From assembly GCA_043797125.1 (NCBI GenBank), contig JAZDPX010000049.1, forward strand, positions 1 to 61,421: DNA of 61,421 bases, in the 5' to 3' direction. The notes beneath the pieces are model-generated. The model did not search any database and was not told where the DNA came from. It was given only the letters and a program-made list of their open reading frames with translations. Each line of letters opens with the position of its first letter. Position 1 is the stretch's first letter. The position numbers and the translations under genes were made by a program. Origin of the DNA: Candidatus Omnitrophota bacterium. GTDB taxonomy: Bacteria > Omnitrophota > Gorgyraeia > JABMRG01 > JAFGKX01. Positions 37,238 to 59,705 of the stretch are shown here, in pieces.

Positions 37238-37254
37238 CAATTGCTACTTACGTT

Positions 37255-37884: not shown

Positions 37885-37893
37885 GAGGTAGTC

Positions 37894-38259: not shown

Positions 38260-38280
38260 CAACATCAAAAAAGGTGTCGC

Positions 38281-39006: not shown

Positions 39007-39033
39007 CCAGCCTCAAGGAGCGCTTTTAATGGC

Positions 39034-42292: not shown

Positions 42293-42432
42293 ACTCATTT
42301 TTAGCCACCTTGCCATCCCCGCGAAACTTGTCCCCGTGAAAACGGGGAGCGGGGATCCGTTTTTTCCCTGTTTTTTCCCTTGAAAGTTCCGATATTTATG
42401 ATATACTATACATCAAACGAAGATGAAAAGGG

Positions 42433-42520
42433 CCCCGAAGGGAGAACTTCTCTGAAGTTTCTTCCTTCGGGGTTATCATTTTAGGCTTAATTAAGGCATT
42501 TAATTAAAGGTGATAGAAAG
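42433..42520 (+). promoter_or_regulatory. Leader of the LRP-motif gene: hairpin plus conserved 48-nt block
   Basis: Hairpin at 42433-42472. 42473-42520 matches 59621-59668 at 38/48 positions without gaps. Confidence 0.65.
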
Positions 42521-42523
42521 TTT

Positions 42524-43750
42524 ATGAGAAAAATTTTAGTAATTATTCTAATGCAATTTATCGTTATTAACAGCATAACAACACCCCTTGGGGCTGTAAC
42601 CGTAGATGCTTTGCGCCCCCTTTCAAGTGAACTATCTAAAAATGATTTTAAGGAGAATGAGCTTACTGCAAAAGTTATAAGCGAAGAAGTTTTGCCGGCA
42701 GTTAGAAAGATGGCCAAGGCAGCTGGGGAAATAATGTTAAGTTATAAAGGAAAATTGGATTCTCTTAGAAAAGAGATGAAATCTGATAAAACAATAGTGA
42801 CAGAAGTTGATACCAAAATTCAGGAAATGGTCATTCAAGAAATACGCTCATTATTTCCAACGCATTATATCGTTGGGGAAGAAGAAATGTCAGGCATCAA
42901 GCTGGATAAAAGTTCGCGATATACATGGACAATAGATCCCCTGGACGGAACCAAAGAATTTGTTAAAGACGGGAGTCATTATGGTTTCTCAATTTGTCTG
43001 ATGGACGAAGGTTCGCCAATCTTAAGTATTTTTTATGCGCCCGAATATCGTATAGACGGAGAACATGAATACTCTCTGTTTGAGGCTTGCGAAGGCATTG
43101 AAGGCGCTTATTTAAACGGAAAAAAAATTACCATTTCTAAATCAACAGACTTTAAAAACAAGAAGTGTTTAGTTGTAGGTAGCGCTGCTTACGGTATCTT
43201 AGGGTTTGAGCATAAGCTGAGAAGTTTATTTGGAGGGGGAGATTCTGACTGCCGCTCTACAACTTTGGAAATTTGCAGAGTCGCTTGCGGTGGCACATAT
43301 GGCGAGCCTATATTTTTTGCAAAAGCGATAATTTGTGATATGCACGATGTAATGCCTGGCATATACATAGCAGAAAAAGCAAAAGCTATAAATGTGGATT
43401 TTAAAGGAAGCAATCTTTTACCGGTAGATAAAACAAGATTAAGAGGGGAGAGCCCAAGATTTCATACTGTAATGGTAGGAAGCGAAGAAACAATAAAACA
43501 TGTTTTACCGGCATCAAGTGAATTATATGTACCTGACATGCATGATGCTTTGAGAAAAGATCCGACAATTAAGTTTCTTAAAGAATATACGGGCCTAGAA
43601 AATTTATTAGATAATCCAGTATTACATAAGGAATATTTGAAATGGCTTGGAAATGGAAAGATTACAGGACCACAAAAGAAAGCAATAGAGAATTCCTATC
43701 AGTCAAGGTTCAATTTGCAACTCTTAAATGCAATAGGAGCTGCTGCCTAA
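42524..43750 (+). CDS. Signal peptide + LRP motif protein carrying an inositol monophosphatase/CysQ-family domain
   Basis: MRKILVIILMQFIVINSITTPLGAVTVDA|LRP. IVTEVD, IVGEE, WTIDPLDGTKEF. C-terminus AIGAAA. Confidence 0.82.
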   Translation: MRKILVIILMQFIVINSITTPLGAVTVDALRPLSSELSKNDFKENELTAKVISEEVLPAVRKMAKAAGEIMLSYKGKLDSLRKEMKSDKTIVTEVDTKIQEMVIQEIRSLFPTHYIVGEEEMSGIKLDKSSRYTWTIDPLDGTKEFVKDGSHYGFSICLMDEGSPILSIFYAPEYRIDGEHEYSLFEACEGIEGAYLNGKKITISKSTDFKNKKCLVVGSAAYGILGFEHKLRSLFGGGDSDCRSTTLEICRVACGGTYGEPIFFAKAIICDMHDVMPGIYIAEKAKAINVDFKGSNLLPVDKTRLRGESPRFHTVMVGSEETIKHVLPASSELYVPDMHDALRKDPTIKFLKEYTGLENLLDNPVLHKEYLKWLGNGKITGPQKKAIENSYQSRFNLQLLNAIGAAA

Positions 43751-43755
43751 ATATC

Positions 43756-43927
43756 AAAGTGAGGTTTTTGCAATGCGAGGCACATTAGAAATTTTTTTCC
43801 AAATGTCTTTTTAGAACTTACGGCGCGGGAACGGCTAAAATTTTTTATTCTTGGGAAAGTGACCAAGCCGTAAGTTCAAAAAGACGGAAAAAAATTTCAG
43901 TGCCGAGCATTGCAAAAGCCGAACTTT
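43756..43927. repeat. Long imperfect inverted repeat (~170 bp) between convergent genes
   Basis: Arms TTTTGCAATGC/GCATTGCAAAA, GAAATTTTTTTCC/GGAAAAAAATTTC, GAACTTACGGC/GCCGTAAGTTC. Confidence 0.8.
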
Positions 43928-43931
43928 ATTG

Positions 43932-44558
43932 CTAAGCGAAGCAGTCCCTGATAATTTCTTTTATTTCCTGATAGGAGAGAGGTAAGTTGCAGACAAAATC
44001 CCTATGCGGCCTGTTATCTCTGTATTCAGGCGCCTTTTTAGGCTCCTTTAGATAGCGGCTTATCTTTTCAATATCAAAATCATATAAAAATGTCCCATGG
44101 TGCAAAAGGTACTTTTTTCGCCTTGCCTGGGCATTGCCGGAAACCTTTCTGTTGTTGAAAGCTAAATCCGACACAGGGTTATATGTCAGTGATATACCTT
44201 TTTTATTAAAGCTATTCACTAAATTACCCAGGATATATTTATAAGAGCCTTTAATGGATGCCAGGCTTTTATTCATAGTATAAGGTAAAACGAGAGAGTA
44301 GTTAAGGCACCCAATTCCCAAAAGCACTGTTCCTCCACCTGATATCCGCTGTATTATCTCAATATTGTCCTTTATGCAATTATCTAAACACACATCATTT
44401 TCTATAGAGCAACCTCTGCCAAGCACAACGGTATAGTTTGGGATTTCCCAAAAGCGAAAACACGCACCCTGCCTGCCTTGTTCAGCTTCGTTTAAAAGGT
44501 GTTCATCAAAGGCAATATTTTTTTCTGAAGTGTCCGGGCTTATCTTTATGTATTCCAT
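43932..44558 (-). CDS. lplA: Lipoate-protein ligase A family
   Basis: RISGGGTV, LNYS, KVSGNAQ, HHGT. Lies at the end of the gcv operon. Confidence 0.85.
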   Translation of the reverse strand: MEYIKISPDTSEKNIAFDEHLLNEAEQGRQGACFRFWEIPNYTVVLGRGCSIENDVCLDNCIKDNIEIIQRISGGGTVLLGIGCLNYSLVLPYTMNKSLASIKGSYKYILGNLVNSFNKKGISLTYNPVSDLAFNNRKVSGNAQARRKKYLLHHGTFLYDFDIEKISRYLKEPKKAPEYRDNRPHRDFVCNLPLSYQEIKEIIRDCFA

Positions 44559-44573
44559 GGTATCAAGGAGGGG

Positions 44574-46013
44574 CTATACACCGAAGTCTAAGTCTTTTAC
44601 AGCCTTTACTTCATCCAGCCTTTTTAAGGCAGTATTTTTCGGGAATTCTTTGAAGACTTGAGGATTTTTTTCAGCCAGCTTTGCCAATTCTATCATGACT
44701 TCAATAAACTCATCCAGAGTCTCTTTTGATTCTGTTTCTGTAGGCTCTATCATCATGGCCTCTTTTACGATAAGGGGGAAATATATGGTAGGAGGGTGTA
44801 TTCCCTTGTCAATCAAAGCCTTGGCGATATCTATAGCGTGGACGCCGTTTTTTGCCTGTCTTTGAGCTGAAAATACGCATTCGTGCATGCATGTGCGCTC
44901 AAACGGTAGATCGTAATAATTTTTTAGTTTATTCATTATATAATTGGCATTGAGGACCGCCATTTCGCTTGCCTGCATAAGCCCGTCTTTGCCCAGCAAA
45001 AGAATATATGCGTATGCCTTAACTAAAACCAGGAAATTGCCGTAAAAAGGCGCGATACTGCCTATAGATAGTTTTTTGTCAAAATCGAACTTGAAATTAT
45101 CCGCGCTCTTTATTAGCCTTGGCATTGGCAGAAATTCCGCCAAATCCTTTTTTACCCCCACAGGCCCGGCTCCGGGACCGCCCCCGCCATGCGGCGTAGC
45201 AAAGGTCTTATGAAGGTTTAAATGGACAACATCGAAACCTAAATCCCCCGGGCGCGCCCTGCCAAGAATAGCATTTAGATTTGCTCCGTCATAATAAATT
45301 AACGCGCCTGCTTTATGAACAAGTTCAGTAATCTCTTTTATGCGCGGGTTAAATATGCCTAGAGTGTTTGGGCAAGTTAACATTAACGCTGCGACATCGT
45401 CCGTCAGCGCCTGTTTCAACAAGTTTATGTCCACTACGCCGCTTTTATCCGACGGTATTTGTTTAACACTATAACCTGCAATGGCAGCTGATGCGGGGTT
45501 TGTGCCATGGCCTGAATCAGGAATCAACACCACGTTTTTTTTATTGCCTTTGTGTTTATGATAAGCCGCTATGATAAGAATGCCTGCCAGCTCGCCATGA
45601 GCACCTGCTAAAGGCTGGGTTGTAAATTCATCCATGCCTGTTATTTCGCAGAGAGACTGCTCAAGATTAAAAATTATTTCAAGTGCTCCCTGGGTGAACT
45701 TCTCACCGCCTGTTACTTGCGCAAGAAGAGGGTGCAGGCAAGTAAAGCCCTCCAGCGAGGCTAAGCCTTCTGTAAATTTAGGGTTGTACTTCATTGTGCA
45801 GGAGCCTAACGGGTAAAAATTTGAATCAACTGAAAAGTTCAGCTTAGAGAGATTGGTAAAATGACGCACCACATCAAGTTCGGAAACTTCGGGCAGTTGA
45901 GCTTGTTTCTTGCGGGTGTAATTTTCTTCAAGCATCCTTACCTGCGAAACATCGTCTGAAGGGAGAGAATATCCTTTTTTTCCGGCTCTTGATTTTTCAA
46001 AAATTAATTTCAT
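44574..46013 (-). CDS. gcvPB: Glycine dehydrogenase subunit 2
   Basis: PLGSCTMKYNP, HGTNPASA, HLNLHKTF.TPHGGGGPG. Confidence 0.95.
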   Translation of the reverse strand: MKLIFEKSRAGKKGYSLPSDDVSQVRMLEENYTRKKQAQLPEVSELDVVRHFTNLSKLNFSVDSNFYPLGSCTMKYNPKFTEGLASLEGFTCLHPLLAQVTGGEKFTQGALEIIFNLEQSLCEITGMDEFTTQPLAGAHGELAGILIIAAYHKHKGNKKNVVLIPDSGHGTNPASAAIAGYSVKQIPSDKSGVVDINLLKQALTDDVAALMLTCPNTLGIFNPRIKEITELVHKAGALIYYDGANLNAILGRARPGDLGFDVVHLNLHKTFATPHGGGGPGAGPVGVKKDLAEFLPMPRLIKSADNFKFDFDKKLSIGSIAPFYGNFLVLVKAYAYILLLGKDGLMQASEMAVLNANYIMNKLKNYYDLPFERTCMHECVFSAQRQAKNGVHAIDIAKALIDKGIHPPTIYFPLIVKEAMMIEPTETESKETLDEFIEVMIELAKLAEKNPQVFKEFPKNTALKRLDEVKAVKDLDFGV

Positions 46014-47347
46014 AAAGCTGACTCCAAAGCCTTAACATACTCATCAATTTCCTGGATGTCGCGTTTTTCAGTCACAGATACAAGCAGGCAGTCCTTCATG
46101 TGTTTGTAATATTGCCCCAGAGGCAGGCCTGCTGCAAAACCTTTATCATCCAGTTTTCTAACAACTTTCTCAGGGTCAGAATCCATCCTAACAGCAAATT
46201 CATTGAATGTCGGAAAGTTGTTTACAACCTCAGCACCCTTTATTTTTTTAATGGCAGCCTTAAGATATTCTGCCTTTTTAAAGCAAAGAGCGGCAACTTC
46301 CCGCAAACCATCTTTTCCTAAAAGGCACATGTATATAAGAGTCCTTAAGGCGCATAGCGCCTCATTAGAACATATATTTGAAGTGGCCTTTTCGCGCCGG
46401 ATATGCTGCTCTCTGGTCTGTAAGGTTAATACAAACCCTCTTTTCCCATCACTATCAGTCGTAGCGCCTACAAGCCTTCCCGGCATTTTTCTCACGAATT
46501 CTTTTTTAGTCGCCATTAGCCCCAGATAAGGACCCCCGAAAGAAAGAGGCAGGCCTAAACTCTGCCCTTCGCCTACGGCAATATCAGCATCCATTTCTCC
46601 GGGAGTTTTTAATATCCCGAGCGATAATGGATAAACACACATTATTGCTATCACGCCGAAACTATGGCATTTTTTTATAATCTCGGAATAGTCGTAAACT
46701 GTTCCGAAAAAGTCGGGATTTGCGAGGATCACGGCGGCGGTTTTATCGTCTATAGCCTGATTAAGCATATCCAGATCGCTTTGCGCAAGCAGGCATGGGA
46801 TTTCAACAAGCTCTACCGGGATGTTGCTTGTGTGTGTATAAACAATTTTTCTGTAAATAGGATTTACGCCGGCATCTATTATTAGCTTATTTCTGCCGGT
46901 AATGCGCACTGCCATCATGGCTGCTTCATAAACCGCGGTGCCGCCGTCATAAAGCGACGCATTGGCAACCTCCATGCCCATGAGGCGTGATACAGCGCTT
47001 TGGTACTCATATATAGCTTGAAGCGTTCCCTGTGATGCCTCAGCCTGATAAGGCGTGTAGGCAGTATAAAATTCGGAACGCGAAGTTAGCGCGTCTACGG
47101 CAGCGGGTATAAAATGATCATAAAATCCCGCCCCTAAAAATGAAATCAGGTTGTTATTATTTTTATTGGCAAGGCCTTTTATGTATTTTGTTACCTCATA
47201 TTCACTTTTGCCCGCAGGTATATTAAAGGAATGGGGACGCAGGTCTTGCTTTATATCGGCAAACAATTTTTCAATATCGCCATTTTGTATGCCGACAGCC
47301 TGAAGCATTTTTAGTTTGTCTTCTTGAGTGTGAGAGATGTAAGACAT
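46010..47347 (-). CDS. gcvPA: Glycine dehydrogenase subunit 1
   Basis: YTAYTPYQAE.SQG, NASLYDG, REQHIRREKATSNIC. Confidence 0.95.
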   Translation of the reverse strand: MSYISHTQEDKLKMLQAVGIQNGDIEKLFADIKQDLRPHSFNIPAGKSEYEVTKYIKGLANKNNNNLISFLGAGFYDHFIPAAVDALTSRSEFYTAYTPYQAEASQGTLQAIYEYQSAVSRLMGMEVANASLYDGGTAVYEAAMMAVRITGRNKLIIDAGVNPIYRKIVYTHTSNIPVELVEIPCLLAQSDLDMLNQAIDDKTAAVILANPDFFGTVYDYSEIIKKCHSFGVIAIMCVYPLSLGILKTPGEMDADIAVGEGQSLGLPLSFGGPYLGLMATKKEFVRKMPGRLVGATTDSDGKRGFVLTLQTREQHIRREKATSNICSNEALCALRTLIYMCLLGKDGLREVAALCFKKAEYLKAAIKKIKGAEVVNNFPTFNEFAVRMDSDPEKVVRKLDDKGFAAGLPLGQYYKHMKDCLLVSVTEKRDIQEIDEYVKALESAL

Positions 47348-47348
47348 T

Positions 47349-47729
47349 TTATAAAGTATCTAGGTAATCCTTGTAAGCGTTGGCGTCTAAAAGAGAGCCT
47401 ATCTCAGCGTTATCAGTAAATTTTACTTTACAGATCCAGCCTTCCTTGTAAGGAGATTTGTTAATTAATTCAGGCTCATTGATAAGCTTTTCATTTACCT
47501 CTATAATTTCACCGGAAAGAGGAACATATATATCGCTCGCCGCTTTTACAGATTCCACAGTTGACAATGCAGTAGATTTTTTTACGGTAGTCCTGTTTTC
47601 AGGGACTTCTATAAAGGTGATATCTCCGAGAGCCGACTGCGCGTAGTCTGTTATGCCAAAGATGGCTTGGTCATTAACTATTTTTACCCACTCATGTTCT
47701 TTTGTGTACTTTAAGTCATTCGGTATCAT
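47349..47729 (-). CDS. gcvH: Glycine cleavage system H protein
   Basis: HEW, GITDYAQ..LGD, ESVKA lipoyl lysine. Confidence 0.95.
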   Translation of the reverse strand: MIPNDLKYTKEHEWVKIVNDQAIFGITDYAQSALGDITFIEVPENRTTVKKSTALSTVESVKAASDIYVPLSGEIIEVNEKLINEPELINKSPYKEGWICKVKFTDNAEIGSLLDANAYKDYLDTL

Positions 47730-47742
47730 ATTTACTCCACGT

Positions 47743-48816
47743 CTATTTTTTATAAAACGGCGGCATTGTTATTGTCGCATTAATAGTGACTTTATTGTCG
47801 CTGAGCGTAATTGCGCCGCCTTCAACTGCGAATTCTTTTTCCATATAGCATAGTCCTATTGCCTTTTTAAGGCAAGGGGAAAAAGATGCGCTTGTTACTT
47901 TGCCTATAGTCTTGTTACTGCATATGACGTTAAAGTTATGCCTTGGGCTTTGGCGGCCTTCGGCAATAAATCCGACTAGGATATTTTTTACTCCGTCAGA
48001 TTTTTGCTTAAGAAGGGCGTCTTTTCCTATAAAAGCCTTGTCAAAATAAATAAATTTTTCCAAATTAGCCTCAAGGGGCGTATGGTCAAGGTCTATATCC
48101 TGTCCAAAAAGTGAATATCCCATCTCAAGCCTTAATGTATCGCGCGCGCCAAGGCCCGCAGGTTTTACATCGGGATTTTTAAGAAGCGCGCGCCACAGGT
48201 TAACAGCGTTTTCTTTTAACAAATATAATTCATATCCCAGCTCGCCTGTATATCCTGTCCTGCTTATAATGGTTTCAATTTTACACACTTTTGCCGTTAC
48301 AAAATGGTATTTTTTGATTGTTTCCAATTTTGCTTCCGTAAAGGCTGAGAGGACCTTTGCGGAAAGCGGCCCCTGTAAATCTATCTTTGCTATTTCATCG
48401 GATATATCGGTAAATTTAGTTGCTGAGGAAAGATTGGATTGTATCCACTCCTTATCCTTCTGAATGCAGGCAGCATTTACAACCAGCATAAACTCGTCTT
48501 CAGTCGTCCTGTATATTATTAAATCATCCAGGATTTTGCCTTCGTTATTAAGCATAAAACCATAGCGGCATCTGCCAGCATCCATATCGTGGCTGCGGCA
48601 TGTTAAAAGGTTATTAATATCCTGGTTAGCGGTGTTGCCTTTAAGTATAAACTCGCCCATATGACATATATCAAAAAGCCCCGCCTTTGTTCTTGTGTGC
48701 AGGTGTTCTTCGATTATGCCGGAATACTGCACCGGCATGTTCCATCCGGAAAAATCCACCATGCGTGCGCCTAAGCGGATGTGTTCATTATAAAGAGGAG
48801 TATTTTTTAAAGGCAT
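47743..48816 (-). CDS. gcvT: Aminomethyltransferase (T protein)
   Basis: FSGWNMP.QY, GLFDI.HMG, SRTGYTGE.GYE, GLGARDTLRLE. Confidence 0.95.
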   Translation of the reverse strand: MPLKNTPLYNEHIRLGARMVDFSGWNMPVQYSGIIEEHLHTRTKAGLFDICHMGEFILKGNTANQDINNLLTCRSHDMDAGRCRYGFMLNNEGKILDDLIIYRTTEDEFMLVVNAACIQKDKEWIQSNLSSATKFTDISDEIAKIDLQGPLSAKVLSAFTEAKLETIKKYHFVTAKVCKIETIISRTGYTGELGYELYLLKENAVNLWRALLKNPDVKPAGLGARDTLRLEMGYSLFGQDIDLDHTPLEANLEKFIYFDKAFIGKDALLKQKSDGVKNILVGFIAEGRQSPRHNFNVICSNKTIGKVTSASFSPCLKKAIGLCYMEKEFAVEGGAITLSDNKVTINATITMPPFYKK

Positions 48817-48902
48817 TTTAATTAATTATATGCCAAATGCGCGGTTTGTCAATATTTTACTTTTAAAAACACTCACTTTTATATATAATAGACACTTACA
48901 TA

Positions 48903-49778
48903 ATGATAAAAGAAGCTATGTTGTATAAAAGCATGGATGGCTCTTTAGTTGAGTGCGGCCTATGCGCCCATCACTGCAGGATTGCGGAGTCGCAATTCGG
49001 GTTCTGCAAAGTCAGGCAGAATAAGGAAGGCAAGCTGTATACGCATGTTTACGGCGAAGTAATTGCTGCCCATGTTGACCCGATAGAGAAAAAGCCGCTA
49101 TACCATTTTTTGCCGGGCAGTATGTCATATTCAATAGCCGCACCGGGATGCAATTTCAGGTGCGGGTTTTGCCAGAACTGGCAGATATCGCAGCTTTCAG
49201 CGCAAGATCAAGCATCAAAAGTAATGTATAAAATGTCTTCCGAACAGATAGTAAAAGCAGCAATAGAAAACAACTGTAAGAGCATATCCTACACCTATAC
49301 GGAGCCGACCATATTTTTTGAATATGCCTTTGATACGGCGAAGATAGCAAAACAAAAAGGCCTAAGCAATATTTTCGTTACAAACGGCTTTATGACTGCA
49401 GAGACGCTGCAGATGATTAAACCATACCTGGATGCAGCCAATGTTGACCTTAAGTTTTTTAGAGAAGAAACCTATAAAAAGATATGTAAAGGCAGGTTGC
49501 AGCCTGTGCTGGACTCGATTAAGCTGATGAAAAAATCAGGGATATGGTTAGAAATAACCACTTTGGTTGTTCCGGGTTTGAATGATTCAGAAGAGGAATT
49601 GGCTGATATCGCGGCATTTATAGCAGGCGTTGACAAGAAAATACCGTGGCACATAAGCCGCTTTTTTCCAAACTTCGAATATTATAATGTAGGCGCGACG
49701 CCTTTGGATATCTTAAAAAAAGCAAAAGAAATAGGTAAAGAAAAAGGTTTGCAGCATGTATATTTGGGGAATGTATAG
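48903..49778 (+). CDS. amrS: AmmeMemoRadiSam system radical SAM enzyme
   Basis: C..CAH.C....G.C.VR, DPIEKKPLYHF.PG, GCNFRCGFCQNW, YTYTEP. Confidence 0.9.
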   Translation: MIKEAMLYKSMDGSLVECGLCAHHCRIAESQFGFCKVRQNKEGKLYTHVYGEVIAAHVDPIEKKPLYHFLPGSMSYSIAAPGCNFRCGFCQNWQISQLSAQDQASKVMYKMSSEQIVKAAIENNCKSISYTYTEPTIFFEYAFDTAKIAKQKGLSNIFVTNGFMTAETLQMIKPYLDAANVDLKFFREETYKKICKGRLQPVLDSIKLMKKSGIWLEITTLVVPGLNDSEEELADIAAFIAGVDKKIPWHISRFFPNFEYYNVGATPLDILKKAKEIGKEKGLQHVYLGNV

Positions 49779-49802
49779 AGCAATAAAGAAAGGAATTGCA
49801 AA

Positions 49803-50075
49803 ATGGCAAAGATAAAGATACAGAAACTGGATGATATAACGCTGGAAGAGATGGGGGTAATGGCCTGGCCCATATGGGAAAAAGAAGTATCAAGATTTGA
49901 CTGGCACTACGACGAACAGGAGACCTGTTATTTTTTAGAAGGCAAAGTGACAGTTGAAACCAAAGACGGAAACGTCTCTTTTGGCGAAGGCGACCTCGTA
50001 ACATTTCCAAAAGGCTTAGCATGCGTGTGGAATATAAAAGAGCCCGTAAGAAAACATTATAAATTTGGAGACTAA
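49803..50075 (+). CDS. Cupin (DUF861-like)
   Basis: WPIWEKE.S.FDW.Y...ETCY.LEG.V...GDLV.FPKG..C.W. Confidence 0.88.
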   Translation: MAKIKIQKLDDITLEEMGVMAWPIWEKEVSRFDWHYDEQETCYFLEGKVTVETKDGNVSFGEGDLVTFPKGLACVWNIKEPVRKHYKFGD

Positions 50076-50078
50076 TAT

Positions 50079-50660
50079 ATGGCAATAGAAGAATATCTGC
50101 ACAACATAAAGGATATAAATGAGATATCAGTTGCTATTGACAGATGGGATGATATTTTTTCTGATTTTGATCCCAGCCCGATAGAACACAGGACCCTCTC
50201 AGAAGATTTTATTTACGAGCTGAAAAAGCGCCACCGAGAAAGCAAATCGGGAAGATTTATTATTACGATATACGCGCCAAAAAGTCTCCATGATGAGGCA
50301 ACAGAAAAAATGGTGATAAATAGGCTTAAGCAATATTTTCATTTCAGGGCCCTGCAGGAGAAAAAGCAGCTTAGAGGGGTCAGGATTACGGGTTTTGTTT
50401 TTGTCGCCTGCGGCATATCGTCGCTTGCTCTTTTGACTATTTTAACATATTCAAAAAAATTTACTGATTTAACGATTGAGCTCATAGGGATAGTATTTAT
50501 GCCTTTGGGATGGTTTGGCTTATGGGAAGGTTTTTCTAGAATAGTTGATAGTTCGCCTTTATTGCGCCAGGATGAAAACCTATTTATCAGGCTTTCAAAG
50601 GCTAGTTACCAGTTTAAGCACGTAGAATACAAGGAGGCAGGCATTGGAATGCAGGAATAA
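50079..50660 (+). CDS. Hypothetical membrane protein
   Basis: [13 protein letters not shown] motif and two C-terminal TM helices. Confidence 0.7.
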
Positions 50661-50835
50661 GAAAAACATGTCAATGTGCAATTGCACTTACCAGCCGTGC
50701 AGCAGAAAGGGCATTTGTTGCGAGTGTCTGCATTATCATAGAAGGCAGGGTGAACTTCCTGCCTGTTATTTTCCTAACGACATCGAGAAAACCTATGACC
50801 GCAGCATACAAAGATTCATCAAGGCCCAAAGATAA
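50644..50835 (+). CDS. Small Cys-rich protein (DUF6485-like)
   Basis: TTG start after GGAGG. CNCTY.PC.RKG.CCEC..YH....LPAC. Confidence 0.75.
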
Positions 50836-50843
50836 AATTTGCC

Positions 50844-51392: not shown

Positions 51393-51394
51393 TC

Positions 51395-51937: not shown

Positions 51938-53148
51938 GCAAAATAATAATGCACATAGACATGGATGCATTCTTTGCGTCTGTGGAAACAAGGGATAATC
52001 CCGCCTTAAAAGGCAAGCCTGTTGCAGTAGCAGGCGCAAACCAGCGCACGGTAATAGTAAGCCCTTCCTATGAAGCCAGGGTATTTGGCGTAAAAACAGG
52101 CATGACCAAATCGCAGGCCCGCAGCCTGTGCCCATCTATAACATTTATTACCGCAAACACCCATAAATATACGCGCGCCTGCAGTGAAATAGTGAAAATA
52201 CTTTATTCCTTTACTCCGGATATCGAGGTATATTCGATTGATGAATTTTTCATTGATGTAACCAATAGCCTCCATTTATTCGGCCCTGCCGAACAAACCG
52301 CGCAGATGATAAAGGATAAAATAAAGAAGGAATTAAAACTTCCCTGCACCGTAGGCATTTCTTATAACAAGCTGTTGGCAAAGATAGCAAGCGACAACAA
52401 TAAGCCGGACGGGCTTTTTGAAATAGACAGCAAAAACAAAAATACGGTTATCGGCAAGCTGGATGTGTCTTCGATATGGGGCATAGGACCAAGTACATCA
52501 AAAAAATTGTATAATATCGGAGTCGTGACATTAAACGATTTAAAGAGTTTGAGCATGGAATTTTTAAATGAAAAATTCGGTATGTATGGCTTAACGCTGT
52601 ATAATATGGCGCGGGGAATCTGGGATGATGAGGTTGTAACTGCAGATAAGCAAGAGCAAGCAAAATCAATAGGCCACAGCATGACCTTTAGCGCTGATGC
52701 CAATGGTATTGAAGAGCTAAGAGGATATCTTCTTGAATTGTGTAAAAAGGTTGCTGAAAGATTAAGGCGCGAAAATTTAAAAGGAAAGTGCGTAAGCGTA
52801 ACAGTAAGATACAAGAGTTTTAAGACCTTTTCAAGGCAAAAATCCACAAACGCGCTTATCGATACAACAGAGCGCATTTACAAAATAGCCACAGATATAT
52901 TAAAATCCATAGATCTTAAAGAGCCTGTCAGGCTTCTTGGGGTAAGTATTTCGAGATTAAGGCAGGATGAATATAAGGGTTTTCTTTTTAAGGAAGAAGA
53001 GAAAAGGCACAAAATCGATACTGTACTCGATCAGATAACAGCAAAATTTGGCAACACTGCTATAACGCTTGGGTCACTTGTCAACAAAAGGTCCTACAAA
53101 AGAGTCATTTCCCCGGCCTGGCGGCCTTCCGGAGCCAGGAACTATTAA
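51934..53148 (+). CDS. dinB: DNA polymerase IV
   Basis: HIDMDAFFASVE, SYEAR.FGV, SIDE, KLLAKIAS..KPDG. Confidence 0.95.
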   Translation: MSKIIMHIDMDAFFASVETRDNPALKGKPVAVAGANQRTVIVSPSYEARVFGVKTGMTKSQARSLCPSITFITANTHKYTRACSEIVKILYSFTPDIEVYSIDEFFIDVTNSLHLFGPAEQTAQMIKDKIKKELKLPCTVGISYNKLLAKIASDNNKPDGLFEIDSKNKNTVIGKLDVSSIWGIGPSTSKKLYNIGVVTLNDLKSLSMEFLNEKFGMYGLTLYNMARGIWDDEVVTADKQEQAKSIGHSMTFSADANGIEELRGYLLELCKKVAERLRRENLKGKCVSVTVRYKSFKTFSRQKSTNALIDTTERIYKIATDILKSIDLKEPVRLLGVSISRLRQDEYKGFLFKEEEKRHKIDTVLDQITAKFGNTAITLGSLVNKRSYKRVISPAWRPSGARNY

Positions 53149-54311
53149 ACAGACATCTTTAATATCGCTACAATATCTTTTTCACCCAAAGGCTTAAAAG
53201 ACCCTATTGTGTCCTCGGATTTAAGCGCCATTTTCGCCATGACGCTGAATTTATCAACAGGGACTTTAACCTCGGTTAAAGTTTTTGGCAGGTCTAAGGA
53301 TGTAAAAAATTCTTTTGTCTTACTAATAGCCCCGTTAGCTATATCTATATCTTTTTTATCTTTATCTATTCCCCAGACATTTATCCCGTACTCTGCGAAT
53401 TTAGGCAAAGTTTCTTTGCTTAAGACATATATCATCCAATTTGGAAATATTATCGCAAGTCCTGCTCCGTGACTTATATCATATATTGCGCTTATCTCAT
53501 GCTCTATTGCATGGCATGCCCAGTCCTGCTCCTTGCCTTCGCCTATTAAACCATTAAGAGCCAGAGTGCTTGCCCATAAGATATTAGCCCTTGCCTCATA
53601 ATCGCGCGGCCTTTTGCAGCAAACAGGCCCGTATTTAATGCATGTTTTTAATAAGCCTTCAGCTAATCTGTCCTGCGCATCAGCGCCTTTTGTGTGGCTA
53701 AAATATTGCTCAAATACATGCGCCATTATATCAGCAACGCCTGCTGCCGTATGAAATTTATTTACGGTATAGGTGTATTCCGGGTCTAAAATAGAGAAGG
53801 CAGGCTTAATTTTTTCTGTGATTAGCGCAAGCTTTCTTTGCGTGTCTTCATTGCTTATAACAGCATTGCCGTTTGCTTCAGTGCCTGTAGCGGCAAGGGT
53901 AAGCACGCAGCCTAAAGGCAGGGCGTTGTTTGGTGAGGCATCTTTAACAAAAAAATCCCATACATCGCCGTCATGTTTTGCGCCTACCGCAATTGCCTTG
54001 GAGGCATCAATTACGCTGCCGCCTCCGATACCTAAAATAAAATCTATTTTTTCTTTTTTGCATATCTCTATGCCGCTATATACACTCTTAAGACGCGGAT
54101 TTGGCTGGATTCCCGAAAGTTCAACATACCAGACGCCGGCTTGCTTGACTTGTCTCATAACATCATCAAATATGCCGTTTTTCTTAATACTGCCCTGGCC
54201 TGTCGTGATTAATATTTTTTTTGCCCGTTTTTTTAATTCCTGTGACAACGCCGTTATCTGGCCTTTGCCGAAATAAATTTTTGTCGGTATATGGTGTATG
54301 AAATTTAACAT
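53145..54311 (-). CDS. Iron-containing alcohol (butanol) dehydrogenase
   Basis: GGGSVIDASK, TLAATG.E, H.FEQY, H.IEH, HGAGL. Confidence 0.9.
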   Translation of the reverse strand: MLNFIHHIPTKIYFGKGQITALSQELKKRAKKILITTGQGSIKKNGIFDDVMRQVKQAGVWYVELSGIQPNPRLKSVYSGIEICKKEKIDFILGIGGGSVIDASKAIAVGAKHDGDVWDFFVKDASPNNALPLGCVLTLAATGTEANGNAVISNEDTQRKLALITEKIKPAFSILDPEYTYTVNKFHTAAGVADIMAHVFEQYFSHTKGADAQDRLAEGLLKTCIKYGPVCCKRPRDYEARANILWASTLALNGLIGEGKEQDWACHAIEHEISAIYDISHGAGLAIIFPNWMIYVLSKETLPKFAEYGINVWGIDKDKKDIDIANGAISKTKEFFTSLDLPKTLTEVKVPVDKFSVMAKMALKSEDTIGSFKPLGEKDIVAILKMSV

Positions 54312-55150
54312 TATTTATACCCGCGTTTTTTTAGGTATATCTTTGTCAGAAAATCAATCAGGGTTTCAGGAGAGACTTTTTTAACCAGCCAGACAAACCT
54401 GGCTTTTGATGTTATTACATAACGCGCGCGCGGCCTTTTGCTTTCCAAAGCATGCGCTATTTTTTTTGCCACGGCCTCCGCAGGCGCTTTTGTGCCTTCC
54501 ATGGTTATGTTAAGCCGCCTTTCTTGTATAAGGTTGTATGCCTTAACGTGAGGGCTTGTTTTTTTATTTTGGAGCGTATACATAAGCTTTAGGGAATTGT
54601 CATTAAATTTTGTCTTTATAGAACCAGGCTCTATTATAGAAACGCTGATATTTGTATCTGATAACTCGAGCCTTAAAGCATCAGATAAGGCCTCAAGAGC
54701 GTATTTACTTGCGCAGTAAGCGCCCATGTAAGGAAGAGTAAATCTTCCTACAATAGAACTTACATTTACAATGCGGCCATGATTTTGCCTTCTAAATACA
54801 GGTATCAGCAAATTAGTCAGCTCTTGTAAGCCGAATAAATTAGTATCAAATTGTTTGCGTAAAATTTCCTGAGTTAAATCCTCAACAGCGCAGGTTAAAC
54901 CAAAACCCGCATTATTAACCAGGGCATCAAGCTTACCTTGTGTTTTGGAGAGCACATAATCAGCAGCCGCTTTGATAGAAGAGGAGCTGTCAAGGTCAAG
55001 GGCGCATGATTCAAAACCAGCGTCAATCAAAGCTCTTACATCTTCGGGTTTTCTAGCTGTTGCAAAAACTTGCCAGCCTCTTTTTTTTAGCATTTCTGCG
55101 CAAGCTCTCCCTATTCCGGATGAAGAGCCTGTGATAAGTGCGGTTTTCAT
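54311..55150 (-). CDS. Short-chain dehydrogenase/reductase
   Basis: TGSSSGIG, NNAG, YCASK. Confidence 0.92.
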   Translation of the reverse strand: MKTALITGSSSGIGRACAEMLKKRGWQVFATARKPEDVRALIDAGFESCALDLDSSSSIKAAADYVLSKTQGKLDALVNNAGFGLTCAVEDLTQEILRKQFDTNLFGLQELTNLLIPVFRRQNHGRIVNVSSIVGRFTLPYMGAYCASKYALEALSDALRLELSDTNISVSIIEPGSIKTKFNDNSLKLMYTLQNKKTSPHVKAYNLIQERRLNITMEGTKAPAEAVAKKIAHALESKRPRARYVITSKARFVWLVKKVSPETLIDFLTKIYLKKRGYK

Positions 55151-55217
55151 TAATCTCCTTGCTGAGTCAGCGTTAATATATTATAATATAGCTTACTAGA
55201 AAAGCAAAGGCAAATTA

Positions 55218-55276
55218 GGGGACGGTTCACCCCCAAGCTTGGGGACGGTTCACTACTGTGCTTGGAAAGTGTCCCC
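55218..55276. repeat. GGGGAC-family repeat cluster
   Basis: GGGGACGGTTCAC twice, followed by GTGTCCCC. Confidence 0.6.
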
Positions 55277-55286
55277 TGCGCATAAC

Positions 55287-56084
55287 ATGTTTAAAATCCT
55301 TATATATATAATAATAATTGTAGTTATCCTTACAACGTATATCCGTTATATTGAAGGCCGCAGCATATTCTTTCCTATGAAAAGGATGGAATTTACGCCT
55401 GATTTTGCTAATCTGCCTTACGAAGACGTATATATAACCACACAGGATAATGTCAAAATAAACGGCTGGTTTATACCTGGGGATAATGCCAAATATACGC
55501 TTTTATTCTGCCATGGCAATGCTGGAAATATCAGCCACAGGCTTGAGAAAATAATTATCCTTCGCGATATCGGCGTTAACATATTCATTATTGATTACAG
55601 AGGCTATGGCAACAGCGAAGGCAGCCCTTCGGAAAAAGGCCTGTATATTGATGCAAGGGCAGCATACGATTATCTGGTTAATACCAGAAAAAATGCCCCA
55701 GAAAACATTATTATTTACGGAGAATCTTTAGGCGGAGCGGTTGCTGTAGACCTTGCCTCAAAGGTAAAGGCAGGAGCATTAATAGCAGAAGGAACTTTCA
55801 GCAGCGCAAGGGATATGGCAAAAAAGATGTACCCGTTTTTACCTGCGCTTGTTTTCTCAAGCAGGTTGGATTCAGTATCAAAGATTAAAAAGGTAGGCGC
55901 GCCTAAGCTTTTTATTCACAGTAAAAACGATGAAATAGTCCCATTTATCCTTGCCATTAAGCTTTATAATGCGGCAGGAGAGCCCAAAGACATGATAGAG
56001 CTTTTTGGCGGCCACAATACCTACCACATAGACTCGAAAAACAAATATATTTCTTCAATAGCAAAGTTTTTAAGCAGGCTTTAG
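55287..56084 (+). CDS. Alpha/beta hydrolase (ABHD13/Bem46-like)
   Basis: N-terminal TM, HGNAGN, DYRGYG, GESLG, D..V, GGHN. Confidence 0.9.
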   Translation: MFKILIYIIIIVVILTTYIRYIEGRSIFFPMKRMEFTPDFANLPYEDVYITTQDNVKINGWFIPGDNAKYTLLFCHGNAGNISHRLEKIIILRDIGVNIFIIDYRGYGNSEGSPSEKGLYIDARAAYDYLVNTRKNAPENIIIYGESLGGAVAVDLASKVKAGALIAEGTFSSARDMAKKMYPFLPALVFSSRLDSVSKIKKVGAPKLFIHSKNDEIVPFILAIKLYNAAGEPKDMIELFGGHNTYHIDSKNKYISSIAKFLSRL

Positions 56085-57370
56085 GGAGAAATCCACTTCT
56101 CTTTTGGCGGGTTAAAATATCCGAATTTGATTTTGGAGAAGCGTTTTTTAATTTCTTTCATCAAATTCTTTATACCTATCATATTTTCCGGTCTTAGGGC
56201 CACCTTCATAAGTCTTGCGTAAGCAGCAGGGTCATAATTCAGATTTCGCCACTGTATCATATCAATACGGTTGTCTTTAAGAAATTTAAGTAGGGTTTTT
56301 ACTTCTGCGATTTCATCCGTAAATCCAGGGGCAGTGAAATAGTTTATCGAAACAAATCCCCCAGCTGCTTTTGTGTATTCTATAGACCTTATAACATCCT
56401 CAAATTTATAGCCTATGGGCTTAAAATAGGCATTGTAATATTTTTCCTGTACGCTATTTAGGCTTACGCGTATGCTGTCCAAACCTGCCGCAAAAAGCTG
56501 TTTTACGATTTTAGGCTTGCTGGCGTTGGTATTCAGGTTTATTGTGCCTTTTTTTGTATCTTTTCTTATTAATTTGATTGCTTCAAGCAGCACATCGCTA
56601 ACCATAAGCGGTTCCCCTTCGCAACCTTGCCCGAAACTTACCACAGGGTTTCTTACGTCATTAATATGAAACAGGGCTACTTGAGATATTTCTTCAGCCG
56701 TTGGGGTAAAGGTGATTCTTGGTTGTGTTATAGAGCAGTTTTTATCAGGCTGAAAAGATAAACATCCTGCGCATCTTGCGTTGCATTTCGGAGAAGTTGG
56801 CAGTGGACATTCGTATCTTTGTAAAAAGAAATTTTTCCCTGCAGGGCAGTTATAAACAAGGGCGCATTTTGTAAGGTGCTTAAACAATCTGTTGCCGGCA
56901 AATATTTTTTCAAATTTCTTTACATTTTGTTTTATCTTTTTAATGCTCATTAGCCTTAAATCCTGCCTTTTTTCCCTATCAACCCTTACTGCAGGCACAT
57001 AGAAATCCCCATCATAAAAAGCTACAGGCGCATAAGAAAAAAGAGGCAGCATTTTGGCATTTTTTTCCTGGACATATGCTGTTGAGTATGTGGCTGTGTA
57101 TCCCGGTGATACAAAAGCAGCTACTGCAAAGCATTTTTCTCTTAACTTTGAATAAGGATTTGTCTTTAGGGTTGTAAGCTGGCCTGTTTTTGAATCATAG
57201 CCAACAGGGTATCTTTCAGGCAGCACAAAAAGCTCGCTTCCAAAGGGCAATTTTATCAAATCTTTCCTTGAAAGAGGAAATAGTATCCCTGCCTTTGATG
57301 CCGCAGGTTGTAGGCCGGGCACATCAAGGATATTATGGTTTTTATCAGCTATTATTAAGGCTGGCTTCAT
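56081..57370 (-). CDS. Radical SAM protein
   Basis: PTSPKCNARCAGC, SFGQGCEGEP, NLNTN. Confidence 0.88.
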   Translation of the reverse strand: MKPALIIADKNHNILDVPGLQPAASKAGILFPLSRKDLIKLPFGSELFVLPERYPVGYDSKTGQLTTLKTNPYSKLREKCFAVAAFVSPGYTATYSTAYVQEKNAKMLPLFSYAPVAFYDGDFYVPAVRVDREKRQDLRLMSIKKIKQNVKKFEKIFAGNRLFKHLTKCALVYNCPAGKNFFLQRYECPLPTSPKCNARCAGCLSFQPDKNCSITQPRITFTPTAEEISQVALFHINDVRNPVVSFGQGCEGEPLMVSDVLLEAIKLIRKDTKKGTINLNTNASKPKIVKQLFAAGLDSIRVSLNSVQEKYYNAYFKPIGYKFEDVIRSIEYTKAAGGFVSINYFTAPGFTDEIAEVKTLLKFLKDNRIDMIQWRNLNYDPAAYARLMKVALRPENMIGIKNLMKEIKKRFSKIKFGYFNPPKEKWISP

Positions 57371-57441
57371 ATTATTCGCTTATTATAGGCTCTATAAGGG
57401 GCGTTCGCAAGGCGAAAATCGCATATTTGCCCGGATTTTGA

Positions 57442-57503
57442 TTGACAAATAATAGGACATATTATATAATAAATTTATAAAATAAATAGGACATATGTCC
57501 TAT
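57442..57503 (+). promoter_or_regulatory. Consensus sigma-70 promoter and palindromic operator of the HTH-Fic gene
   Basis: TTGACA(57442)-17 nt-TATAAT(57465). AATAGGACATAT lies in the spacer and recurs in the perfect palindrome ATAGGACATATGTCCTAT (57486-57503). Confidence 0.75.
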
Positions 57504-58427
57504 AAATCAAATATGAATAAACTAAAAAAAGGTATATTTTCGGATAAAGAGAAATTAGGCCAGCTTATCGCGTGCGCGGGATTTACCTCGACAAAAATAG
57601 CTAACGCAATTGGGGTAACTTACAAGACTGTGTACCGCTGGCTGCATAAAAAGGTGAAACCACACCATGGACAATCACAGCGCATCGATGAATTGTACAA
57701 AGAATACGTGGATATAACGCCAATGGTATATGCAACAAAGAAGGAATTCACCAGAGGCCCTTTAGAAATTCTGAAAAACAACCAAAAAATACGTAATAAA
57801 TTTTTTCTTGAAATGACTTATCATTCAAATGCCATTGCAGGAAGTAAAATGACCATAAAAGAGACCCAAAAGGCAATAAAGGGCGAGAAGGTAAGAGGTA
57901 AGAGTCTGTTTGAGCAGCTTGAGGCTATTAATCACAACAATGCCTTAGGTTTTATGCTCGAATGCCTAAAGCCGGGTTTTAAAATAACAGAAGATTATAT
58001 ATTAAAATTGCATAGCATTGTTATGTATAATTTTAATGATAAGTTACCAGGCAAATACAGGACTGGGCCTGTTAACCTGGTAAACGCAGAAAAGCCTCTG
58101 CCAAGTGTCAAAGAAGTGCCGCCAAAGATGAAGAAGCTAATAAGCACCATAAACAGCCCCAAGCCGGAAATAATCAAAAAGGCCGCAACGGTTCATTATA
58201 ATTTTGAGACTATTCATCCGTTTTTTGATGGAAACGGCAGGGTTGGCAGGCTTATTATGATAACCCAGCTTTTAAGCAGGGGATTTGGCCCTGCGATTAT
58301 AAAGATTGAAGACAGGTATAAATATTTCACTGCTTTGGGAAAGGGTGATATGGGAGATTTTCAGAATTTGGTTCAGCTTACATGCGAAGCTGTACTAAAC
58401 GGGTATGAAATGATGGCTACAGCATAG
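57495..58427 (+). CDS. HTH + Fic-domain protein
   Basis: IANAIGVTYKTVYRW HTH and HPFFDGNGRVGR Fic motif. Alternative start at 57513. Confidence 0.9.
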   Translation: MSYKSNMNKLKKGIFSDKEKLGQLIACAGFTSTKIANAIGVTYKTVYRWLHKKVKPHHGQSQRIDELYKEYVDITPMVYATKKEFTRGPLEILKNNQKIRNKFFLEMTYHSNAIAGSKMTIKETQKAIKGEKVRGKSLFEQLEAINHNNALGFMLECLKPGFKITEDYILKLHSIVMYNFNDKLPGKYRTGPVNLVNAEKPLPSVKEVPPKMKKLISTINSPKPEIIKKAATVHYNFETIHPFFDGNGRVGRLIMITQLLSRGFGPAIIKIEDRYKYFTALGKGDMGDFQNLVQLTCEAVLNGYEMMATA

Positions 58428-58497
58428 TAGCGCAGGCTTAAGCCTGCGCTACTATGCTTTCAGTAGGCAAACCGGGGCAGGCTTAAGCCTGCCCTAC
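58421..58497. repeat. Two GTAG-type REP-like palindromes
   Basis: Perfect 38-bp palindrome at 58421-58458 and GGGCAGGCTTAAGCCTGCCC at 58475-58494. Confidence 0.88.
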
Positions 58498-58509
58498 CAT
58501 CGTGGATAA

Positions 58510-59475
58510 TTAAATATTATTAATTAAATTCACAAGCTCCTTATAAGATCTCGTAGCGCATATAGCAGAGCGCACCTTGCCTGCATCCGGAACGCCCTTT
58601 AAATACCACATGGCTATTTTAAGCATAAGCCCAACCCTGCCCATGGTTTTGCTTCCTTTGTGTGTTTCCAATAACTTCAGGTGTTTTTTCAGCACTTTTT
58701 TTTTGGCAGAAATAGTCGGCTCAGGCAAAATTTTTCCATTTTTTAAATAGGCATCAATCCCTTTGAATATCCAAGGATAGCCAAGTGCGCCCCTTGCAAC
58801 TAAAATACCATCACATCCTGTTTCATCAAACATCTTTTTAGCCAGTTGCGGATTAAGTACATTGCCGCTTCCAAAAACAGGTATTTTTAAGGCGGTTTTT
58901 ATTTCCCTTATAGACTCATAATCAACCTCGCCTGCATAGCCTTGCGCCCTGGTCCTTCCATGCACAAAAACAGCCGAAGCGCCGCTTTCCTGGCAGGTTT
59001 TGGCTAAAATTAGGGCTTCCGGAAGGCTTTTTTTGCCATATCCTATCCTAATTTTAACTGTAACCGGAACAGGCAGGAAAGAGGAGAGTCTCAGTAAGAT
59101 CCTTCCTAATTTTTTAGGCTCTTGCAGCAAATATGCGCCTGCGCCTTTGGATGTAACCTTTTTTGCAGGGCAGGCGCTGTTGATATCCAAAAAAGTAACA
59201 TCAACAAGGCCTAGTAGTTTTTGAGCAGCATCAGATAACATTTCAGGATCAGAGCCTAATAATTGCGCGGCTATTGGCGAGTCAGTTTTGTCGGTTTTTA
59301 GCATGTACAAAGTTCTGGGATGCTGATATAAAAGCGCCTTTGCTTCAACCATTTCAAAAAAACAGAATTTAGCGCCATGCTCGCGCGCTATAAGCCTGAA
59401 TGAGTAATCCGTGCACCCTGACATCGGCGCCAGGAATATGTTGGTCTTTATAGTACTTGAGCCGATTTTTATCAT
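58510..59475 (-). CDS. dusB: tRNA-dihydrouridine synthase B
   Basis: LAPMSG.TD..FR, QL.GS, DINSACP, VTVKIR.G, VHGRT, G.DG..VARG. Confidence 0.9.
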   Translation of the reverse strand: MIKIGSSTIKTNIFLAPMSGCTDYSFRLIAREHGAKFCFFEMVEAKALLYQHPRTLYMLKTDKTDSPIAAQLLGSDPEMLSDAAQKLLGLVDVTFLDINSACPAKKVTSKGAGAYLLQEPKKLGRILLRLSSFLPVPVTVKIRIGYGKKSLPEALILAKTCQESGASAVFVHGRTRAQGYAGEVDYESIREIKTALKIPVFGSGNVLNPQLAKKMFDETGCDGILVARGALGYPWIFKGIDAYLKNGKILPEPTISAKKKVLKKHLKLLETHKGSKTMGRVGLMLKIAMWYLKGVPDAGKVRSAICATRSYKELVNLINNI

Positions 59476-59583
59476 GGGCTACATTATATACTTGCCTGGC
59501 ATTATATGTCAATGTACTAATTTTTCTTGTAAATCCAATAATTCTATGGTATTATATTAAAAATTGAATTATACGAAAAGAGC

Positions 59584-59705
59584 GACCTCATGTTTGCGTA
59601 CCAAACGCATGCGTGAGGTCTTATAGTTTTAGGCTAAATTAACACTTTTAATTAATGGGGTTATAAAGATAGTCAATAGTCTATAGTCAATGGTCTATGG
59701 TCAAT
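59584..59705 (+). promoter_or_regulatory. Leader of the third LRP-motif gene: hairpin, conserved 48-nt block, heptamer tract
   Basis: Hairpin GACCTCA..TGAGGTC at 59584-59620. Conserved block at 59621-59668. ATAGTCA/ATGGTCT repeats at 59669-59705. Confidence 0.65.

Follow-up and report, generated by a model that had tools for sequence, protein, structure and literature searches.

The window analysed here is the whole 61,421-bp contig JAZDPX010000049.1, from an uncultured member of the Omnitrophota whose genome comprises 2.06 Mb in 54 contigs (42% G+C, 94.75% complete). On its forward strand are two genes, each standing singly amid housekeeping genes, whose products begin with a signal peptide that ends in an LRP motif, and upstream of each lies a similar 48-nucleotide (nt) block. 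Gene 1 (42524..43750, 408 amino acids) continues into an inositol monophosphatase/CysQ-family domain (Pfam Inositol_P, E = 3.4e-33; all of its NCBIfam matches are under their cut-offs). Gene 2 (59715..61421), which runs off the contig, continues into an aromatic amino acid lyase domain (Pfam Lyase_aromatic, E = 3.1e-75, in two stretches), and NCBIfam histidine ammonia-lyase models match it under their cut-offs. Both open reading frames (ORFs) start with ATGAGAAAAAT; for gene 2 the in-frame ATG at 59697 given in the ORF list falls within a heptamer repeat array, and the start was taken at 59715. An earlier note on this DNA had proposed that the two genes share a conserved 5' leader, and direct comparison agreed with its description: the blocks at 42473-42520 and 59621-59668 are identical at 38 of 48 positions without gaps, both contain the dyad AATTAA-N5-TTAATT, and ahead of each come GAAAAG(G/A)GC and a strong hairpin, the two hairpins (42434-42472 and 59584-59620) being unlike in sequence. 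Another LRP gene of the window, at 1461, had been said to lack a clear copy, and indeed neither the nhmmer profile nor the covariance model described below matches there; it has another, short leader type instead.

Each block sits within a longer arrangement whose parts follow one another on the forward strand; promoters here and throughout are matches to the sigma-70 consensus. For copy 1, a putative sigma-70-like promoter at 42380..42407 (TTGAAA-16-TATACT with TG before the -10; 10 of 12 matches in the consensus scan) is followed by a 5' box with the sequence AUGAAAAGGGC at 42423..42433, delimited from multiple-copy alignments, and by a hairpin, P1, at 42434..42472 (fold z = -4.0), which is variable in sequence between copies and keeps its pairing. 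The block at 42473..42520 then comprises the U-rich run UUAUCAUUUU, a second hairpin, P2, at 42485..42511, and the tail GAUAGAAAG. In the RNAalifold consensus, P2 of this copy reads GCUU-AAUUAA, loop GGCAU, and UUAAUU-(AA bulge)-AGGU. For copy 2, the predicted promoter at 59527..59555 (TTGTAA-17-TATTAT, again with TG before the -10; 9 of 12 matches) precedes the box ACGAAAAGAGC at 59573..59583, likewise placed from multiple-copy alignments, a P1 at 59584..59620 (fold z = -3.5) that is unrelated in sequence to that of copy 1, and the block at 59621..59668 with P2 at 59633-59659. This block was recovered by both the profile and the covariance model, the latter scoring 86.5 bits over 59573-59668. 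An array of five RGTCNAT heptamer units (59671..59705) is inserted between the copy-2 block and the start codon.

The earlier note had named two observations that would speak against a shared leader, blocks lying upstream of random genes and similar matches arising by chance in AT-rich DNA, and neither was found. An ungapped scan of both strands of the whole genome with copy 1 as query revealed eight other places at 36-44 of 48 positions (38/48 for copy 2 and 36-44/48 for the seven others), whereas ten mononucleotide shuffles of the query reached at best 31/48. A profile made from the two window blocks alone found eight more loci. A nine-sequence nhmmer profile of the block, run on the genome, gave nine loci at E <= 1.3e-9 and a tenth, split by an insertion, at E 0.0023 and 0.021, with noise at E >= 2.6. 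There are ten leader copies in the genome, and each of the ten is directly followed, in the same orientation, by an ORF whose product starts with basic residues, continues into a hydrophobic core and reaches (A/S/C/G)-LRP, signal peptides having been called by eye and with a simple hydrophobicity rule. This placement in 10 of 10 cases, together with identity that is concentrated in islands and not uniform, argues against a dispersed repeat or miniature inverted-repeat transposable element. As a dispersed repeat in its own right, P1 has just one additional stand-alone copy, at C26:6267-6305 (loci outside the window are given as contig:position); it is a copy-1-type hairpin, 35/39 identical, without box or block and in a non-leader context.

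A structure alignment was made from 19 sequences, comprising the 10 genomic copies and nine distinct sequences from elsewhere. It defines a leader of approximately 100 nt with four parts from 5' to 3': an 11-nt box, the hairpin P1, a U-rich run, and the AU-rich hairpin P2 with an AAAG tail. The consensus of the box is AUGAAAAGGGC, P1 has a folded span of 37-80 nt with flanking pairs included, and the U-rich run has the consensus UUAUUAUUUU with conserved A positions. P2 consists of the stem GCU(U/A)-AAUUAA, the loop NNC(A/U)U, the arm UUAAUU, an AA bulge and (A/U)GG(U), and the tail terminates in an invariant AAAG. Sigma-70-like hexamers lie upstream of 14 of the 19 copies, often with TG before the -10, and are separated from the box by 8-20 unconserved nt. 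Between the end of the block and the start codon the distance ranges from -9 nt (with the start inside the tail, locus L029) to about +75 nt (L036). Box, P1 and block are constant in order and tightly spaced, while the distances to the -10 and to the start codon vary, which suggests that the unit acts as a whole and that occlusion of the start site is not required.

Covariation in collected leaders had been suggested as a check, and it gave a split answer: P1 was strongly supported by compensatory changes, and P2 was neither supported nor rejected. In P1, 12 of 13 pairs changed on both sides with 91.7% of cells paired; its covariation score of 0.443 compares with 0.146 in shuffles (0 of 500 reached 0.443) and at most 0.107 for slid partners, although these shuffle statistics overstate independence because 10 of the 19 sequences are paralogues of one genome. 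P2 has 91.1% of its cells paired, with almost invariant arms. Scanning every pair of columns brought no other covarying helix to light, and two possible outer helices, UUUU/AAAG and AAAA/UUUU, are invariant on both sides. Other features bear on whether P2 would form in RNA. The G-U pairs at its base (GU in 11/19 sequences and UG in 17/19) pair solely in sense-strand RNA, and there is asymmetry in the conserved loop C as well as in the flanking UUUU-N-GGC and GG...AAAG. Moreover, in the copy at C6:77257-77407 the P2 loop is precisely where 54 extra nt have been inserted, leaving the two arms whole; this insertion folds on itself (-27.5 kcal/mol) and occurs nowhere else in the genome. The base pairs, the asymmetric flanks and loop, and the loop insertion indirectly favour P2 as an RNA hairpin.

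Conservation along the leader is confined to islands. Mean pairwise identity among nine genomic copies, calculated with shuffled controls that gave 0.50-0.57, was 0.90 for the box (shuffled 0.51) and 0.80 for the block, as compared with 0.64 for the promoter region (shuffled 0.57), 0.62 for the signal-peptide codons, 0.59 for P1 and 0.56 for the cargo. Conserved islands therefore bracket a hairpin that keeps its pairing and not its sequence, indicating purifying selection on a folded RNA rather than recent duplication or gene conversion. Other readings of the conserved parts were tried by eye or by hand and rejected. An upstream ORF from the AUG of the box was weakly rejected: it would have 5-31 codons, an unconserved peptide and no Shine-Dalgarno sequence (SD), its first codon being AUG, UUG or GUG in all but one of the 16 copies that retain an intact box, the exception having ACG. 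A pseudoknot of the P2 loop (CAU) with the box AUG and upstream bases reached 5 bp in 7 of 13 copies against about 4.7 expected, which is not significant, and a sigma-54 or sigma-70 promoter within the block showed a poor hexamer fit.

The ten proteins that follow the leader are unrelated beyond their N-termini. BLASTP among the ten cargos gave no pair at E < 1e-5, and Pfam assigned them to the inositol monophosphatase family, aromatic amino acid lyase, the SF1-helicase-type AAA_11/AAA_12, HATPase_c (GHKL ATPase), and radical SAM with a B12-binding domain; in addition there were weak methyltransferase matches under the Pfam cut-off, and four cargos were without a confident family. A close comparison is possible between the copies on contigs C17 and C32, which precede a 1,689-amino-acid helicase-type protein and a 595-amino-acid HATPase_c protein. 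Their nucleotide homology runs through the box, P1 (with compensatory differences), the block, a second SD, the GTG start, the signal peptide and the LRPxA codons, and ends there. Across eight copies, P1 similarity correlated modestly with signal-peptide-codon similarity (Mantel rho 0.39, permutation p about 0.03), and no correlation was found with promoter or cargo similarity. The sharp boundary and the correlation together indicate that the leader and the targeting peptide have a common history as one unit, set in front of unrelated genes. The C17/C32 pair, the cargo BLASTP and the Pfam assignments agree in confining homology to the 5' flank and the leader peptide, with unrelated coding sequence beyond. 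The earlier note had proposed that promoter, leader and signal-LRP segment travel together as one 5' module; this is supported for the leader and the signal-LRP segment, and the promoter is not clearly included, only its consensus hexamers being common among the copies. The note's alternative, that the genes form a regulon, is plausible. A 3' cassette boundary common to all was not found among the nine of ten genes compared (the tenth runs off its contig), such matches involving only a few genes.

The LRP genes as a whole form a larger set. A heuristic ORF screen gave 52 raw rows, of which 39 were retained by eye as signal+LRP after rows without a basic residue and hydrophobic core shortly before the LRP, spurious short ORFs and one duplicate were dropped. 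The signal ends in (A/S/C/G)-LRP-x-(A/S), and no Pfam or NCBIfam model covers it. A profile of eleven LRP N-termini gave 27 matches in the source genome, 0-7 in each of 15 other genomes of the order (at least one in 13 of the 15), and just two marginal matches in 25 genomes of other orders. From this spread we conclude that the LRP head is an order-level trait that is expanded in the source genome. Many of the 27-39 LRP genes carry enzyme domains that are normally cytoplasmic. Since such domains would make ordinary export to the periplasm surprising, they suggest that the cargos may be delivered to another cell.

LRP genes outside this set have leaders of other kinds, among them a second, shorter type composed of an extended -10, 5-8 nt, (C)CTTTTATAA, 3-9 nt and ATAAAG, with a small AU hairpin or dyad. 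As RNA this is a (C)CUUUUAUAA...AUAAAG element right after the -10, and it precedes the gene at 1461 and at least eight more LRP genes. Its sites include 1416-1445 in the window and C4:35608, C6:124189, C6:109916, C26:1150, C33:161326, C38:131975 and C45:42462. A genome-wide regular expression for it placed 8 of 20 promoter-adjacent matches before LRP ORFs, along with two matches without a promoter call; at one promoter-adjacent match, C19:26664, no ORF was called downstream. The longer leader is sometimes found on the first of two tandem LRP genes (C38:20754-22497, C6:76363-77407 and C6:29973-31570), and in the C6:31476/29973 pair the second gene has a truncated leader copy of its own.

Outside the source genome the leader is rare. 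Against Rfam 15 at gathering score, the whole window matched only a tRNA (765-838); at E <= 10 the region 42380-42560 reached at best 19 bits against gathering scores of 35-100, with hits all of the microRNA or snoRNA hairpin type that we took as chance. A covariance model, R1, was built from eight copies and run over 41 related genomes. Two of these matched, namely the source genome with its ten copies and one metagenome-assembled genome (MAG), G002, of the same family and another genus, with one copy. Over 151 genomes of the class, R1 gave an extra 39.6-bit match in genome G050, which lacked P2, stood before an unrelated small ORF and was counted as false. At E <= 1 over 16 genomes of the order, the extra matches consisted of a hairpin and U-run only, without the P2 block. 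A degenerate pattern of the block gave three loci in a collection of species genomes, one being the same-family MAG (Candidatus Omnitrophota); the other two, in Polaribacter and Arsenophonus, match the AT-rich core and not the full model. The same pattern gave 15 loci in metagenome contigs, 11 of which fit the full model and represent eight distinct sequences, and the four that matched only the AT-rich core were dropped. Among the nine distinct copies outside the genome (one MAG and eight metagenome sequences), five precede signal+LRP ORFs, and there is one each with an LRP-type signal cut by the contig end, an 'LRA' variant, a signal peptide without LRP, and no nearby ORF. A literature search returned, among its top-ranked results, nothing on an Omnitrophota leader RNA, and in the searchable text of one preprint the words 'LRP', 'leader' and 'UTR' do not occur. 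By these searches the leader belongs to no described RNA family among those tested and is lineage-specific, with a very narrow range.

Our preferred reading, which we hold with about even confidence, is that the blocks are part of a lineage-specific, transcribed and folded cis-acting leader RNA of approximately 100 nt that is fused to the signal-LRP segment and exerts post-transcriptional control. The leader is probably a new common control element. In the mechanism we envisage, a trans-acting factor, most probably a protein, would recognise box, P1 and P2 jointly as a single surface. Once bound, the factor would set the fate of the mRNA, either by affecting ribosome loading or via decay in which RNase E/G or RNase Y cuts at AU-rich single strands, so that a subset of LRP-tagged proteins would be made together. 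Genes for RNase E/G and RNase Y are present in the genome, and AU-rich single strands beside stable hairpins are the kind of site that these enzymes cut.

Several findings weigh against this leader-RNA reading. The leader is present on 10 of about 39 signal+LRP genes and hence marks a subset and not the whole family. In the copy at C6:29999 the block survives but the box and P1's 5' arm have been lost, and one metagenome copy (L023, which equals L026) has no signal-peptide gene after the leader. The sole variable pair of P2 (alignment columns 105/182) is UA in seven sequences, AU in six and unpaired in six, and is thus kept in 13 of 19; P2 and every element other than P1 are almost invariant, so that covariation cannot confirm them. 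As to trans factors, no candidate emerged: CsrA and Hfq were not found in the 94.75%-complete genome, and NusG is single with no paralogue. With regard to the L023 copy, its next ORF lies 250 nt downstream and resembles SmpB by eye.

The main rival is attenuation, since the box, P1 and U-run are terminator-like and similar leaders precede LRP genes in related genera. Here an intrinsic terminator would be formed just downstream of a strong promoter, from the A-run in the box, P1 with its GC-rich stem, and the U-rich run, and regulated read-through would control transcription of the LRP gene. The layout is compatible: as in an intrinsic terminator or leader attenuator, an A-rich 5' flank (the box), a strong GC-rich stem-loop (-20 to -45 kcal/mol) and a U-rich 3' flank come directly after the promoter. 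Moreover, a terminator scan flags copy 1 (part of P1 with TTATCATTTT), and in other genera of the order LRP genes have leaders with a promoter, a GC hairpin and a U-run and without the P2 block. However, copy 2 is not flagged by the same scan. The U count in the 8 nt after P1, as counted from folds, is 5-6 in most copies, yet the run UUAUUAUUUU has fixed A positions and is not a plain U tract. The scan of all column pairs revealed no alternative antiterminator pairing, and an antiterminator or sensor 5' of the terminator has little room, with 11 conserved and 1-13 variable nt standing 5' of P1 and no covarying alternative fold. The block with P2, which is the best-conserved portion, is situated 3' of the point of release and as RNA could have no effect on termination at P1. 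Finally, just one NusG gene was found. On this evidence we regard attenuation as unlikely, while keeping it as the alternative to be taken most seriously.

A somewhat lower probability attaches to a constitutive cassette, in which the leader would give high and stable expression without regulation, the SD-like AAAGG in the box and block holding the 30S subunit and the AU tracts enhancing translation. AAAGG ranks with the 5-mers that are most enriched ahead of start codons in the genome (124 versus 42 in background) and occurs in the box, at the P2 base and partly in the AAAG tail, and the promoters are near consensus with an extended -10. Nevertheless, a generic enhancer would have no need of an invariant loop C, exact AAUUAA arms and a covarying P1 at fixed spacing, and the element is found only at LRP genes and at no highly expressed housekeeping gene. 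As for mRNA stabilisation, P1 lies 9-24 nt or more from the predicted 5' end, which exceeds the range for 5'-terminal protection by stabiliser hairpins, and an RNase J C-terminal domain was not found in the genome at its stated completeness.

Less probable again is a DNA operator. The dyad AATTAA-N5-TTAATT would be bound by a dimeric transcription factor acting as an elongation roadblock, and the RNA fold of P2 would be incidental. Its arms, TTAATTAA, do form a nearly invariant palindrome, in which the centres of the half-sites are separated by about 11 bp, a spacing typical of helix-turn-helix dimers, and P2 as RNA is without covariation support. Against this, the distance of the dyad from the promoter varies by tens of bases (P1 contributing 37-80 nt and the interval from -10 to box 8-20 nt), the 54-nt insertion parts the half-sites in one otherwise intact copy, and the conserved flanks and loop C are asymmetric. 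An operator would also leave unexplained the box and the covarying P1, which always accompany the block in constant order.

The idea that the 5' segment is merely a recombination handle, kept as homology for grafting the signal-LRP head on new cargos and having no function of its own, accords with the sharp end of the C17/C32 homology after the LRPxA codons, the unrelated cargos and the correlation of P1 with signal-peptide similarity, but we judge it highly improbable, as recent copying or gene conversion would keep all parts alike whereas P1 and the signal codons are near shuffled levels and the islands at 0.80-0.90, the P1 changes are compensatory, and about 29 other LRP genes with the same type of head are without this leader.

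The folded leader-RNA reading can also be set beside known systems. Orphan structured cis-regulatory motifs of 5' untranslated regions (UTRs), of the kind collected in Rfam, likewise belong to one gene set and have a variable stem with compensatory changes between invariant flanks; the present leader is of this kind and differs in that its genes are defined by an N-terminal signal and not by a pathway, and in its range of 2 of 41 related genomes. Marconi et al. in 1996 reportedly described an upstream homology box of Borrelia ospE/ospF-related lipoprotein genes. There too a conserved 5' flank and leader peptide are common to secreted or surface paralogues whose mature proteins differ, whereas in our case the conserved part lies 3' of the promoter, contains a covarying hairpin, and belongs to genes scattered singly among housekeeping genes. 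The Borrelia box is a DNA-level promoter/operator region on prophage plasmids. A further parallel is offered by the cspA-family 5' UTRs of E. coli, where paralogues likewise have two conserved islands, the 'cold box' close to the 5' end and the 'upstream box' ahead of the SD in the ribosome-binding site, with effects on mRNA stability and translation. Our leader is unrelated to them in sequence; its islands enclose a long hairpin of variable sequence, and its distance from the start codon differs between copies.

RNA thermometers of the fourU and ROSE type are built on a weak AU-rich hairpin, and P2 is such a hairpin, with an AGG base-paired next to a run of four U. In the leader, however, the AGG of the P2 base is about 6 nt upstream of the usual SD position even in the closest copy and tens of bases upstream elsewhere. 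Evidence against an SD-sequestering thermometer comes from the distance from block to start (-9 to about +75 nt) and from the GGTG of copy 1, which stands at -15 against a genome peak at -10 to -8. SDs in this genome are canonical, GGAG having its first base at -12 to -9, and the copies on C17, C32 and at C38:70539 have a separate SD nearer the start. An AGG too far upstream, together with these separate SDs, makes a thermometer-like or SD-sequestering mechanism unlikely as a general one. A riboswitch finds no structural support either: in place of a multi-helix covarying aptamer, P1 alone covaries, P2 is invariant and no further helix is supported.

If the leader RNA acts as we propose, its presence on ten LRP genes predicts a co-controlled subset of the family. 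Its sequence and structure model is a tool for finding such genes in metagenomes, and the leader itself, being small, lends itself to reporter assays that require no culture of the organism. It also provides a clean example of a 5' module, leader plus targeting peptide, moved among unrelated genes. Omnitrophota are described, in the portion of the literature drawn on here, as uncultured, very small and thought to live on other cells. A bolder and doubtful extension is that the leader represents a new signal-responsive RNA class that either senses a small signalling molecule or serves as an RNA 'address' for a dedicated protein, and that would switch on LRP-tagged enzymes of cytoplasmic type (helicase, GHKL ATPase, radical SAM, methyltransferase, inositol-phosphatase family) for delivery to host or prey. 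Were that so, a signal-responsive leader would be the regulatory key to an Omnitrophota effector arsenal.

Several minor observations concern the surroundings of the leader copies. The RGTCNAT heptamer arrays, of 3-6 units, number 58 genome-wide; they are intergenic and often just 5' of start codons, and one more occurs in the window at 8212-8239. In three genomic leader copies such an array lies between the block and the start codon. Most arrays precede genes without LRP, and with 58 of them genome-wide, unrelated to LRP genes, they were ruled out as part of the leader. Similar short heptamer repeats in tandem are known from cyanobacteria. Just upstream of the copy-1 promoter (42318-42368) is a GC-rich palindrome, CCCCGCGAAACTTGTCCCCGTGAAAACGGGGAGCGGGGAT, with a T-run, and a second copy of it lies near C6 109,950, upstream of another LRP gene. 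A further palindrome, CCTGCCTGCCGGCAGGCAGG, recurs at C6:30100 and on C45, C9 and C26, and occupies the place of the leader 5' half in the truncated C6:29999 copy.

With respect to gene 2, the better Lyase_aromatic stretch spans residues 100-431, corresponding to profile positions 107-465, so that it lacks the N-terminal portion of the domain. Inspection by eye suggests that a second lyase domain may begin at the contig end, and it did not reveal the usual Ala-Ser-Gly cofactor triad in the first lyase copy. Elsewhere in the window, three PilZ-domain proteins are encoded within 4 kb (36884-40890), one alone, one as a STAS fusion and one as an MshEN fusion, a cluster that points to cyclic di-GMP signalling in this organism.

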